Below the pieces are notes generated by a model that searched no databases, was not told the DNA's origin, and saw only the letters and a list, made by a program, of their open reading frames with translations. Below, piece by piece: positions 18,909 through 33,002 of a DNA stretch of 64,000 bases. The position numbers were made by a program, and so were the translations under genes. Within the stretch, counting starts at the first letter, position 1. Each line of letters starts with the position of its first letter. This DNA comes from a bacterium (GTDB lineage Bacteria; JAAXHH01): positions 3,325,008 through 3,389,007 of the forward strand of contig OZ241838.1 in assembly GCA_965202605.1 (NCBI GenBank), written 5' to 3'.

Positions 18909-19115
18909 TCAGTGACTGTCGTCGGGATAGACCATGTCGGTCGCCTTGCCGGCCAGGTCGTAGCGATAGAAGACGTCCTTTTCGGGCAGCGTATCGATGG
19001 CTATTGGACAGTCTTCGGGACCTCGGCCGACGCGAACGGAGTCTATCGTCTGCTCACCCCGGCCGCTGAAGAGGGTGAATCGGACCTGGGCATGTGACAC
19101 TCCTTTCAAACACAA
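18909..19115 (-). pseudogene. Rhs/YD-repeat gene remnant
   Basis: ORF ends ...IAIDTLPEKDVFYRYDLAGKATDMVYPDD, matching an internal YD-repeat segment of the downstream Rhs genes (DNA 18915-19000 resembles 21790-21880 and 26215-26300). Homology is only about 90 bp. Confidence 0.55.
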
Positions 19116-19242
19116 GAGATAACATGTCCGCTAAAACGGGTCAACTCCAACTTCACTTCGAACAGCAATTACATATCGAGGACCCATCTTAAAGATCACA
19201 ATCTGTGTCGCGGTCAAGGGTGCGGTACACGTGTTATCTCCT

Positions 19243-19728
19243 TCACAGTGTACAGAACCCTCTTTTTTTGCGCTCGATTTCTACACCTTTCAATTGTCCA
19301 AAAACCTCGTCCATCTTGGGCATTAACAAACTGGTAATGATCATTTCATCTCCAGATCGCAGTAACAAGCGAGCGTAGTAATAACGTTCCACTGTAAAGA
19401 ACGTCATTCCTCCCTTGTCCATGCTTGCAGATTTGTAAACAATGTATTTTTCTATATCATCTATGTTGTATGTCTCTTCCCCCCCGGCTGTGTATCGTAT
19501 GATTTCATTTCGGGTCACTACATATTCTTCCTTGCGATTTTTACGCCAATACTGCAGGTGCAGGTACAGAGTAGGGAGAAAATCCAAAAGGAAAACAATA
19601 CCAAATATAACAATTGCGTCCATTGCAAATTCAAACCAAGCAACGATAGCTATTAACATTACCCAAAACACAAAAGCAGAATAAAGTGGTATGAAATGAT
19701 TTCTTAGATCAATGCCGTACCTTTTCAT
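19243..19728 (-). CDS. Small membrane protein, candidate Rhs-toxin immunity protein (paralog of 23649..24146)
   Basis: 161 aa, two N-terminal hydrophobic helices. Clearly homologous but diverged from the 165-aa protein at 23649..24146. Lies downstream of an Rhs C-terminal domain in a lower-GC patch. Confidence 0.5.
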   Translation of the reverse strand: MKRYGIDLRNHFIPLYSAFVFWVMLIAIVAWFEFAMDAIVIFGIVFLLDFLPTLYLHLQYWRKNRKEEYVVTRNEIIRYTAGGEETYNIDDIEKYIVYKSASMDKGGMTFFTVERYYYARLLLRSGDEMIITSLLMPKMDEVFGQLKGVEIERKKRGFCTL

Positions 19729-30071: not shown

Positions 30072-32232
30072 CGAGCGGAAGCGGATAGAAGGTCTCGGTG
30101 GTTCGATAGCCCGGGATCTCCTCCCGTTCCACCAGGCCGTTTATCGGGTTGTAGCGGTACCTCGTGGTGGCGGTTACGCCGTCCGTGGTCTCGGACGTCT
30201 CGGTCCGCCGCACCCGGAAGCTCTGTTTTTTGGCGCCGCCGTGATAGATCATGTTGTTGAAGTGGCCCGACGTATCTACCGCCCAGGTGTTTTCCAGCCT
30301 GCCCACCTCCCCGCCGGTTGCCGTGTATCGGATCTCCTCCTCGAGCAGCCCGCGCCACATGCGCCGCTGCGCCTTGCCCAGGTCGCTCGTGGCGGGCGCC
30401 AGGCCAAGCCGGTCCACGTCCGCCTCGCTCACGAACTCCCGCCGGATCCTGCCGTAGGACGTGCCGTCCCGGTCCACGATGCGCTCCTCCACCCAGGGAT
30501 ACGTCACGGCTTCGACTGGACCGCTTCCGAACCGCCAGAGGTCGGCTGTATCCGGGTAGACGTACCAGGTGGACGCGGCCGGCGTTCCGGCGTCGCCGTC
30601 GTCGTCCACGTCGCGCCGGGAGACGCGGTACGCGTATTCGTCGTACTTCTTCGCGAGGTGGGACGAATCGGGCCGCGCGTGCGCCGACGTGGTAGCCCGT
30701 TCATAGGTAATGGCCATGGTCCGGCCCGTGGGGTACTTTACGCTGGTAAGGCGGTACTTGTACGACGGGGCGTAGTCGAAGTCATAGGAAGGCAGAGGCG
30801 CCCTGCCCTTCCCCTTTACCGTCACCGAAGAAAGCAGCAGAAGGTTCTGCCGCTGATGTTGTTCGAGAGAATCGGACACGGCATAGGGTTCAGGTTTCAG
30901 ACGGTTTGGTTCGAAAGCAAAGTCGATCGTCGTGATGGTCCGTCCGGCGCCGTCCTCGACCGTTATGCTTCTCAGCCGCCTCGTGGTTTCGATGCCGTCC
31001 AGCGACCGGAACAGGAAGGGGTGGTAGAGTTCCTGCGGGGACCGGTAGAGATTCCCGTTGGGCATGGCGGCGATCATCTCCTGCGCGGTGGGAATCCGGA
31101 CCTGCCCTATGGTCGAGTCCGCCACGACCGAGTTGGTGGCGAAGTCGTAATAGTTATTCCCGTTGGAAAACGAATTGCCGGCGAGCGGCAGGTCCTCCGA
31201 TCGCTCCGTCGCGGCAAAAGTCACCCGGCTCACCAGGTCTCCGGCGGGGTTGTGAAAACGGACCTCCGCCAGATGCGACGTCTGGGAGGTCTTGACCACC
31301 GTATACTCGGTGCTGGCTGATCCGATGCGCGGGTCCAGGTCGCCTGCGCTTATCCTGTTCGGGAAGCTGTTGAAGACCTGGCTTCTCTCCTGGTTGGTGC
31401 GCACGGTGGTCACCGGCTTGTCCGCCTCGTATCGGAAGTAGACGGTATTGCCCTGCGGATCCCTGATGGAGGCGAGATTCCACTGGTATACGAAGCTCCT
31501 GTTCAGCCAGCCGGAGACGATGACGGTCTCTCCCCGCAAGTCTGTTTCGGAGCCGAACGCCATGGCTTCCGTGGTGAGGTTGGCCCCGTATCCGTCAGCG
31601 GGGCCGAAGGTATAGACGTTTCCCGACAGGTCTGTCGCGGTCCAGGTCGATGTCAGCGAATCCTCATTCGCCCACCTGATGTCCCAGAACTGCCGGCGCT
31701 CGACGAAGAACCGGTTGGTGAGCGATGCGTTAGTTCCGCCCGATTCCTTCTGACGGATGAGCGGGTGGTACCCGCCGGGCAGCACCAGGGCCATGTCGTA
31801 CTCGTTAGGGTTGTTGGTGATCCACTCGCCCTGGCCCGGCTCCGTCGTATTGTAGCCGCCGATGACCTTGACCGCTCCCACGGTGAGGTTCCAACCCAGG
31901 CCCGCCCATGAAGGCTGGTTGAGCGTGTAGGTGGCTTTGCCGTCCGCGACGTTCCCCCGCAGGAGCCGGTCCGGCCCCGCGATGCCGCTGCTGTATTCGA
32001 GGGCCAGCGGCCAGGACAGGTCTCCGGAACCGGCCACCGTGGCCAGCGGCAGCGAGAAGGACCAGTCGCCGGTGAAGTAGTCCACCCGGTCCGCCTCCAG
32101 GGTGCTTTGAAGGTGCTCGAAATCATAGGCCCCGTGGGTCAGCTGCCCGGTCGCCGCCTGTCCGGAGGCGGAAAGGACGCCGATCATCAGCGCCAGGGCG
32201 GCAAGCAGCCGTATGGCAAACGGGCCAGTCAT
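30000..32232 (-). CDS. SpvB-like N-terminal region of the Rhs protein, with Sec-type signal peptide; frameshifted relative to the Rhs core
   Basis: ORF 28927..32451 is meaningful from the ATG at 32232 (MTGPFAIRLLAALALMIGVLSASGQA) to about 30000 (...DWSDDPPSLGDTQG), with SpvB-like LALEYSS and GLGWNL motifs. Beyond that it becomes Arg-rich out-of-frame read-through of the Rhs core. Confidence 0.6.
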
Positions 32233-33002
32233 GCTGAAATTCTTACTTGCCGGTGATATTGGCGATGTGTTTTGAATTGCTTCCGCCGCATTATGGTCCC
32301 GGTACGGGAACGATGCGCGGACGCAAGGCGCCGCCCCTCCCCTCCGGTCCTTGCCGCGGCCGGATGTGCGTGATTGTGATGCGTCGTGCGATGTAGGGTG
32401 TGTGCGGACGTGCATGGCTCCCCTGCCTTTCTGTTCGATCAGAAGTAGCACGGGGACGCTCGAGGTCCGCGGGGTGCGGGTCCGCTAAGGGACGCGAGGG
32501 TATTCTGATGCGGTGGTAATGCTCTCGCTCAGGCGGCACGCGTGAGCGAAATGACAATACGAAGATTACAACATTACGATACTATGATATTGCGTTCCTA
32601 CCGATTTACCGGACTGAACCCTCCTTTCGTGAGCGATCCGAATCGTGAGCGATCTGAAACGGATCACGCGTCCATGTTACGTGCGTGACCGCACACAACG
32701 ATATACTATACGTATGTTTAGTTAATGTGTCAAGAGCAAAAATGAAAAAACGCCTTTCAGGACGAAAAGCCCGTTCCGTATCCCGCGCTTACCGGATGGT
32801 ATGGATGCCACAAAGGGGATTGCGCAAGTTCCGACGCGGAATTAGATTTGACAGGAACTCCGAAGTCCCGGGGATCGTATGAATATCGTCGGTGCGCGAC
32901 TGACGCGGATGTCGGTCGAACCGCTGAATCCGATCGTTGTTTTCGTGATCCCCTCTACGAATTCAGCCGTCCGGTACGAAGAGTGGTGCGAGGATCCGCC
33001 CC

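Follow-up and report, generated by a model that had tools for sequence, protein, structure and literature searches.

A probable partly decayed Rhs polymorphic-toxin locus with an orphan module and candidate membrane immunity proteins

In Pseudomonas aeruginosa, the Rhs effector Tse5 has a membrane-depolarising glycine-zipper C-terminus and is paired with Tsi5, a membrane-bound immunity protein (PMC12744356). In main-plus-orphan rhs loci, displacement of rhs C-terminal ends was proposed by Jackson et al. 2009 (PMC2935791), and the mechanism by which an orphan is fused to the main gene was shown experimentally in Salmonella Typhimurium by Koskiniemi et al. 2014 (PMC3967940). Here we describe a Rhs/YD-repeat locus in a 64,000-nucleotide stretch of bacterial DNA (positions 3,325,008 to 3,389,007 of contig OZ241838.1, assembly GCA_965202605.1), which we call the window. 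The locus was read on the minus strand throughout, from 32.4 to 18.9 kb; related contigs are designated L001–L007, and proteins of the family are given P-numbers.

The locus is probably a partly decayed Rhs polymorphic-toxin locus, in which the delivery gene has been disarmed, immunity and a silent reserve have been kept, and the C-terminal tip would target membranes and be matched by a membrane immunity protein. A sequence-only reading of this DNA had described a Rhs/YD polymorphic-toxin locus in which a long gene bears the N-terminus, an orphan lacks its 5' part, two small membrane proteins are homologous and a core scar stands at the end, and our analysis supported that outline. Every open reading frame (ORF) of the proposed order was reproduced on the minus strand, at 32451/32232.., 30071..25086, 25064..24504, 24146..23649, 23332..20084 and 19728..19243, and a small ORF (19115..18909, minus strand) stood at the locus end.

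The main rhs gene and the orphan copy

In the main rhs gene, the coding sequence for a signal peptide and an N-terminal region of ~740 aa is followed by that for a middle region, DUF6443, the Rhs/YD shell with its DQYGL core end and, last, the tip CT1. It had been taken for a full-length gene, but as assembled it is a pseudogene made up of three ORF pieces, of which the first (32451..28927) and the second (30071..25086) overlap by 1.1 kb in different frames, and the third (25064..24504) lies in the frame of the second with a stop codon between them. An intact homologue of 2582 aa (L003:1878-9626), located through its downstream gene, which is a homologue of the small membrane proteins, aligned with the window over its full length at 78-81% amino acid identity and in two frames: residues 1-741 corresponded to 32232..30001 (frame -2) and residues 740-2564 to 30005..24564 (frame -3). 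DNA alignment with this homologue identified one extra G at the frame change (window CCCAGGGGCGAC, L003 ACA-GGGCGAC), and removal of one G from 30001-30004 gave a frame of 2575 codons with a lone internal stop at codon 2382. At this amber codon the window reads VVV-stop-GQRHYNH and the orphan VVVWGQRHYNH; the codon is TGG (Trp) in the orphan and all relatives checked, and L001, L002, L003 and P0014 read VWGQRHY. Owing to the frameshift and the TAG, the gene had no uninterrupted frame from delivery domain to toxin. About 20 other genes of the window were uninterrupted, with Pfam profiles covered end to end, including those of 941, 1178, 881 and 919 aa, and so the assembly is not generally error-prone. 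We treat the main rhs gene as a genuine and recent pseudogene that has been knocked out twice. Phase variation at the G-run was considered and rejected, as four bases are too short to convince. Two DNA-pattern scans of Joint Genome Institute (JGI) metagenome contigs, with patterns for the TAG/TGG site and a conserved core segment, gave 0 matches.

The RHS core anticipated by the sequence-only reading was found with the Pfam model RHS_repeat (main copy, E=2e-34; orphan, E=3e-30) and the Rhs-associated core model TIGR03696, which matched orphan residues 790-867 (E=6e-17) and ended at NPxNRIDQYGL. The YD repeat model TIGR01643 (YD_repeat_2x) also matched (E=1e-21). Two features of a Rhs/YD-repeat polymorphic toxin, a Rhs shell and a core followed by a tip, were thus present. 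The shell matched the Rhs cores 7q97, 8h8a and 8cp6 in the PDB (E=1e-23 to 1e-18), as well as 8qj* entries, and the teneurin-like chains 9ifo and 9pt5 (E=1e-15). DUF6443 of the main copy scored 32 bits (E=1.7e-7; cut-off 27.8). The N-terminal 742 residues matched nothing in PDB or NCBIfam; the N-terminus had been called SpvB-like, yet SpvB, the sole Pfam signal in this region, stayed below threshold (20.6 against a cut-off of 22 bits), and a search for TcdB_toxin_midN/mid gave no Pfam match at E<=0.01. No TcA-like or large upstream partner gene stood next to the locus, and no PAAR, VgrG or type VI secretion system (T6SS) domain was found in the protein or its annotated neighbours in the window. 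The protein begins with a predicted Sec-type signal peptide, at whose Met the alignment of the L003 homologue also begins; the position of its cleavage site is a prediction.

The second Rhs copy, proposed to lack the N-terminus and to have its own C-terminal domain, was confirmed at 23332..20084, where it is open for 1082 codons. It contains a middle region of ~177 aa, DUF6443 (22801..22574), the whole Rhs shell, DQYGL (20746..20732) and an intact tip, CT2. This copy has the make-up of an orphan rhs module, namely a core fragment downstream of the main gene that lacks the N-terminal delivery region and carries its own tip and immunity gene. Its homology to the main gene begins at 23381-23395, ~10 codons after an in-frame stop and upstream of GTG 23332, its first possible start. 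This match to the inside of the main gene, which passes the first start and reaches back to the in-frame stop, is the pattern expected of a truncated fragment. The ratio of nonsynonymous to synonymous substitution (dN/dS) between the two core copies was 0.30, and with L003 as outgroup the main-copy branch had a synonymous:nonsynonymous count of 69:67 and the orphan branch one of 53:53. These values showed that neither branch had detectably relaxed constraint and that both copies evolved as coding sequence, which indicated that inactivation of the main gene was recent.

We regard the orphan as a probable silent reserve, with its expression as a live alternative. An orphan in Salmonella was reported to act as an intracellular toxin-antitoxin-like module (PMC7043789), and the present one might likewise be expressed in that manner or as a stand-alone DUF6443-Rhs toxin. 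Its frame has stayed open despite 12% divergence and under the constraint noted above, and its combination of DUF6443, whole shell and tip is essentially the architecture of the stand-alone family members P0043, P0091 and P0121 (1065-1263 aa). However, these proteins have a signal peptide, whereas the orphan has neither a signal peptide nor another export domain, and their DUF6443 starts at about residue 46, compared with residue 178 in the orphan. In addition, no promoter-like site was found upstream of the orphan, its homology to the main-gene interior reaches back to the in-frame stop, and the signal of purifying selection could have built up while the module sat in a full-length gene elsewhere. 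We consider expression of the orphan unlikely on this evidence, and a silent reserve the better description.

The toxin tips and their PH_40 partners

CT1 and CT2 shared 74% amino acid identity, their divergence lying in the middle, between a start of ~44 and an end of ~70 nearly invariant residues; CT1 cannot be translated from the main frame owing to the TAG. The two are diverged alleles of one putative toxin family and not different toxins. The copies had been said to diverge inside the C-terminal domain, and the middle of this domain had 57-67% nucleotide identity per 100 nt. An exhaustive profile search of 1.84 billion representatives recovered a tip family of 123 clusters (E<=1e-3), of which 47 reached E<=1e-10, and a single-sequence word-index search with CT2 gave 0 matches. 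The match was always at the extreme C-terminus, in proteins of ~60 to 5606 aa; the long carriers were DUF6443-Rhs or SpvB-FG-GAP-Rhs proteins, and the clusters lay mostly on such Bacteroidota-type proteins. The conserved module of ~150 residues can be written as …DYxAMQxGxIxxGRFxYR…GGPxGAxxGAxxG…GExxYD…NFENAxKNGWYPGR. Its GGPxGAxxGAxxG stretch, a glycine zipper (GxxxGxxxG), was conserved across the family, and G109 and G113 were invariant or nearly so.

The small membrane proteins imm1 and imm2 showed 62.7% identity with a dN/dS of 0.26 and a dS of ~1.0, which agreed with their earlier description as homologous but diverged. The precomputed Pfam assignment placed these small proteins in PH_40 (P0003 was annotated as PF26566), and the fold is a transmembrane (TM) hairpin followed by a PH-like domain. 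A tip of the family was directly upstream in 5/5 look-ups from immunity homologues (39-60% identity); it was part of a full-length Rhs protein in L003 and L004, and of an orphan in L001, L002 and L005/L006. In the other direction, a PH_40 gene was immediately downstream in 4/4 look-ups from distant toxins (26-34% identity). A profile scan of genome contigs with the immunity alignment found one locus only, in the same metagenome-assembled genome (MAG) as L001. Because the adjacency of tip and PH_40 gene is strict in both directions, the two were assigned as a putative effector-immunity pair, and the small membrane proteins are very probably immunity proteins. From the positive-inside rule, their PH domain is predicted to be cytoplasmic.

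Toxin and immunity genes are separated by a spacer of 355 nt, in which no conserved ORF was found; a small conserved ORF was rejected as a candidate on account of stops in all frames and lack of conservation. The stem-loop of the spacer was kept, with compensatory changes, in L001:~9775-9815, L002:~9760-9800 and L003:~9772-9815. The 65-nt segments bearing it had folding energies of -26 to -31 kcal/mol across contigs and no U-tract; the hairpin could act as a U-less terminator or could stabilise the transcript. GGAGA was conserved ahead of the immunity ATG. Separation of the two genes by a stable, conserved hairpin and ~200 nt of spacer suggested independent transcription of immunity; the immunity genes would then be partly uncoupled and stay expressed with a dead toxin gene.

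Judged from intact relatives, the system in its ancestral form would have been a Sec-exported protein of ~2575 aa whose YD-repeat shell enclosed a C-terminal tip of ~190 aa. Release of the tip would take place at the DQYGL core end, and the toxin domain proper would comprise ~150 aa. Most likely this helical, glycine-zipper-rich domain inserts into the cytoplasmic membrane of the target and dissipates the membrane potential, and the product of the downstream gene, an inner-membrane protein whose TM hairpin is N-in and whose PH-like domain is cytoplasmic, neutralises it within or at the membrane. The membrane-inserting, membrane-depolarising nature of the tip is suggested by the zipper, the helical character, the lack of a catalytic-looking constellation, the membrane-embedded partner and the analogy with Tse5/Tsi5. 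At present the toxin is probably no longer deployed and immunity to two toxin alleles is retained, while the second unit of ~4.4 kb, with its 5'-truncated core, diverged toxin allele and own immunity gene, remains open, as do both immunity genes, and the orphan is probably kept as a silent reserve. We propose only tentatively that the ~150-aa tip and the TM-hairpin PH_40 protein constitute an uncharacterised toxin-immunity family, in which a membrane-anchored PH-like domain neutralises a glycine-zipper toxin, together with a preferred orphan-boundary site (see below). If this proposal is true, a membrane-anchored PH-like domain at the cytoplasmic face would be a new mechanism of immunity.

Several observations weigh against this interpretation. 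The tip had no match in Pfam, NCBIfam or PDB, and PADLOC was also empty; searches against PDB sequences including Tse5 gave nothing better than E=0.13 (phmmer and profile), and homology to characterised pore-formers was not detected. Kyte-Doolittle analysis gave no classical TM segment in the tip, and its AlphaFold2 (AF2) model, although all-helical, had a predicted local distance difference test score (pLDDT) of 35 and was unusable. The window encodes no secretion machinery or export partner near the locus, and the host is probably a diderm. A promoter-consensus scan detected no promoter for the orphan or immunity genes. Finally, the frameshift lies in a homopolymer and may be an error of the consensus; the tip would then be inactivated by the TAG alone.

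The lack of homology to known pore-formers and of a classical TM segment would also be expected if the tip were an enzyme or another non-pore toxin, with the PH_40 protein as an accessory protein or chaperone rather than an immunity protein. We consider this improbable. Tip and PH_40 gene were strictly adjacent in 9/9 contexts over about 26-100% identity, which is a signature of immunity; the invariant residues of the tip were only Gly, Glu and Tyr in the glycine-zipper stretch, with no catalytic-looking constellation of His, Asp or Cys; and the PH_40 partner is membrane-embedded. A membrane-depolarising tip with a PH_40 immunity protein is thus the preferred assignment.

Origin of the units and of the terminal remnant

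Self-BLAST of 18-33 kb found a direct repeat of 3318 nt between 20079-23381 and 24499-27801 (87.9% identity, E=0), and shorter or weaker matches extended over the spacer, the small genes and the remnant. In the global alignment the two units were collinear over ~4.42 kb (27806 to ~23524 and 23386 to ~19154). Homology begins at nucleotide 4427 of 7729 of the main gene (window 27806, equivalent to 23386) and continues to the stop, then through the spacer and the immunity gene. Identity per 100 nt was 85-95% in the core, with a single window at 74%, and fell to 54-69% in the spacer and 55-81% in the small gene. The copies had been called near-identical over about 3.3 kb of core; they are 88% identical at the nucleotide level, the longest identical tract is 60 nt, and the repeat of that length includes the C-terminal domain, so that the core share is ~2.65 kb (23386..20732).

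G+C content was highest in the cores (66-67%) and decreased through the tips (48-50%) and spacers (45-49%) to the immunity genes (39-41%), and distant family members occurred in contigs of 35-44% G+C, one of which was labelled Mucilaginibacter. The low G+C content of the tip-immunity modules (39-50%, compared with 66-67% in the cores) and the presence of relatives in low-GC, Bacteroidota-like contigs suggested a horizontal origin of these modules. The dS value was lowest in the core (0.24), higher in the tip (0.63) and highest in the immunity gene (1.0), a contrast that codon bias of the GC-rich core may exaggerate, while dN/dS was 0.25-0.30 in all three. CT1 was closer to the tip of L003 (70% identity) than CT2 was (58%), whereas the cores were equidistant from L003 (80-81%). 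The dS gradient and the unequal distances of the tips favour modules of mosaic or horizontal descent over plain duplication in situ. Simple tandem duplication in situ with later divergence, and no horizontal acquisition or exchange of modules, would account for homology that is continuous and collinear over the whole 4.42 kb unit, spacers and junction element included. It fits poorly with the strongly uneven dS along the unit, with tips that differ in distance to L003 while the cores do not, and with a tip-immunity segment of 39-50% G+C inside a gene of 66% G+C, and we give it a low probability compared with a mosaic or horizontal history.

Exchange through the core was seen in relatives. L004 was 99.6-99.7% identical to L005/L006 except for a 3.5 kb deletion in L004 between the main and orphan cores, with ~218 nt of shared core at the junction. 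In L004 the main Rhs is thereby fused to the tip of this family that L005/L006 carry on an orphan; its earlier tip has been lost with the deletion, as have the DUF6705 gene of that tip and a Peptidase_M23 gene. Read from these contigs, the comparison of L004 with L005 showed a natural orphan-to-main fusion by core-core recombination outside Proteobacteria. In this respect the earlier proposal of swappable modules exchanged by core recombination stood. For the genome described here there was no direct evidence of recombination between the copies (shared tracts <=60 nt), ongoing exchange was not supported, and the dS pattern fits a mosaic or horizontal origin.

At the end of the locus, 18920-19003 matched 26216-26299 (92%) and 21796-21879 (90%) without gaps as an in-frame YD repeat, and the tblastn match was L003 residues 1986-2015. 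The remnant of ~90 bp noted earlier does lie beside the GNAT stop, but its counterpart lies inside the core, ~1.05 kb before the core end, and not at a gene end. Its most plausible origin is a third orphan, of which it would be the 5' end left after deletion of the rest. The 5' edge of the remnant is at core coordinate 5934 (window 19004), and orphans start at core coordinate 5939 in L001 (L001:4510) and 5938 in L003 (L003:14696). The upstream flanks of the L001 and L003 junctions were unrelated to that of the window (1/3 contigs with an unrelated flank). A second recurrent orphan boundary was found at core coordinate ~5595 (L001:10907, L003:10854). The recurrence at 5934-5939 hints at a preferred site of cassette capture or truncation, rather than random illegitimate ends. 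The remnant had 5/28 amino acid changes, compared with 2/28 between the long copies over the same residues; this gave no sign of constraint, and a role of the remnant as a selected downstream homology arm was rejected.

At the other end of the core, homology to the other L001-L003 orphans ends ~75 nt upstream of DQYGL (window 25228-25241). The junction element that follows each immunity gene was also found right after an unrelated immunity gene (L002:7050-7150). As a separate observation, an AbiEi/AbiEii toxin-antitoxin pair lies directly after the Rhs orphan array in two contigs (L001:11241-12520 and L003:18078-19570), where the window has GNAT.

It is quite improbable that the main gene is free of lesions, with assembly or consensus errors behind the frameshift, the TAG or both, and that the Rhs system is fully armed and has one orphan. 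A single surplus G in a GGGG run is a classic error of long-read sequencing or pyrosequencing, the L001/L007 record, a relative, is a MAG and this contig may be one too, and the main-copy branch is unrelaxed, but the TAG is a substitution and not an indel, two lesions fall in one 7.7 kb gene and none in ~45 kb of other coding sequence of the window, and a 4-base run is short for a homopolymer error. Assembly collapse or duplication is likewise unlikely to have produced the tandem copies, as 12% divergence makes them distinguishable, and related genomes have comparable Rhs arrays.

Features of the locus, read on the minus strand (positions in the window)
Feature	Position	Strand	Remarks
Sigma-70-like promoter match	32705..32733	-	upstream of the main gene; TTGACA-17-TATAGT, 11/12 positions, consensus match only; total of such matches in the region no higher than in shuffles
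Main rhs gene	24504..32232	-	pseudogene as assembled; reconstructed length 2575 codons
Predicted Sec-type signal peptide	32152..32232	-	MTGPFAIRLLAALALMIGVLSASGQAA; hydrophobic residues 5-23, Kyte-Doolittle 2.07
G-run with one extra G	30001..30004	-	+1 frameshift at codon ~741, from DNA alignment to L003
DUF6443 of main copy	26964..27221	-	Pfam PF20041
DQYGL motif, core/tip junction	25152..25166	-	DPxGL variant (PxxxxDPxGL type), Q for P
In-frame TAG (amber)	25086..25088	-	22 codons past the DQYGL core end, just before the toxin domain
CT1, main-copy tip	24504..25085	-	G+C content 48.5%
Stem-loop, unit 1 spacer	24391..24424	-	13-bp stem; containing 65-nt segment -27.1 kcal/mol
imm1, candidate immunity protein	23649..24146	-	165 aa; two TM helices and PH-like domain, Pfam PH_40
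Junction element after imm1	23500..23600	-	~100 nt; best-conserved 54 nt (23524-23577) 81% identical to 19154-19207
Orphan rhs	20084..23395	-	1082 codons from GTG 23332; 1108 codons stop to stop
CT2, orphan tip	20084..20668	-	intact; glycine zipper GGPYGLLAGAAVGLVFVGG, C-terminal motif ENAVRKGWRPGR
Stem-loop, unit 2 spacer	19978..20011	-	containing 65-nt segment -27.3 kcal/mol
imm2, candidate immunity protein	19243..19728	-	161 aa; PH_40
Junction element after imm2	19130..19230	-	match to the imm1 element
Rhs core remnant	18915..19004	-	84-90 nt, AIDTLPEKDVFYRYDLAGKATDMVYPD; probable leftover of a third orphan; ends 23-28 nt from the GNAT stop

The GNAT gene was confirmed beside the locus at 18242..18892 (plus strand); the other neighbours are genes for a SpoIIE-type phosphatase, a GAF histidine kinase, PhyH and creatininase. 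Scans of the window for Rfam families and for tRNAs were negative. Elsewhere in the window, an AddAB-like helicase-nuclease pair lies at 54256-60424, and an Eco57I/N6-methylase-like gene followed by a BsuBI/PstI-family restriction endonuclease (60568-63479, plus strand) makes a second restriction-modification pair. One stop-free frame of 816 codons (37657-40107, plus strand) contains both SBP_bac_1 (solute-binding protein) and BPD_transp_1 (ABC permease), and would be a gene fusion or else a read-through of two genes that share the frame.

Comparison with known systems

A dead weapon gene with intact immunity genes and a reserve would represent a "disarm but stay immune" state, which is expected once toxin deployment stops paying and is rarely documented outside enterobacteria. 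The analysis also gives an operational definition of an un-curated toxin domain, whose strictly linked PH-domain partner makes a testable effector-immunity pair, and L004 with L005 provides a natural example of orphan activation.

The main-plus-orphan loci of Enterobacteriaceae (PMC2935791, PMC3967940) resemble this locus in having a long rhs gene, an immunity gene and a 5'-truncated core with an alternative tip and immunity gene; GC-poor tip-immunity modules, core scars downstream and the possibility of orphan-main fusion are also common to both. In contrast, the locus described here has no T6SS, VgrG or PAAR context, and the N-terminus of its main protein combines a signal peptide with a weak SpvB-like region and DUF6443. 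Moreover, its orphan is unusually long and includes the whole shell, its tips are allelic, and its main gene is inactivated.

Tse5/Tsi5 is alike in its shell-enclosed tip, which is glycine-zipper-rich and helical, and in its small inner-membrane immunity protein. Tse5 (8cp6_B) matched the core only, at query residues 1065-1286, with no sequence similarity in the tip. The present locus differs in not being linked to a T6SS and in the PH-like domain of its immunity protein.

TcB/TcC and bacterial teneurin-like proteins are similar in length (>2000 aa), in the YD shell and possibly in a SpvB-like N-terminal region. The distant members P0026 and L004 had significant SpvB and FG-GAP domains with the same tip. 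The window differs from TcB/TcC in its sub-cut-off SpvB signal, in the lack of TcdB_toxin_midN, and in neighbours (PhyH, creatininase and GNAT) that are not TcA-like.

Membrane-anchored bacterial PH (bPH) proteins such as YdbS and YdbT of B. subtilis are reported to give resistance to a membrane-active bacteriocin. They share with the PH_40 proteins an N-terminal TM hairpin, a PH-like beta-sandwich and a proposed protection from a membrane-targeting toxin. PH_40 (PF26566) is a separate Pfam family from bPH and is likened to YdbS/YdbT by description; in the present family it is tightly coupled to a Rhs tip. Rhs loci with orphan modules are textbook, and the novelty of this locus is modest, lying in an un-curated tip family with a linked PH-like partner and in a recurrent orphan boundary.

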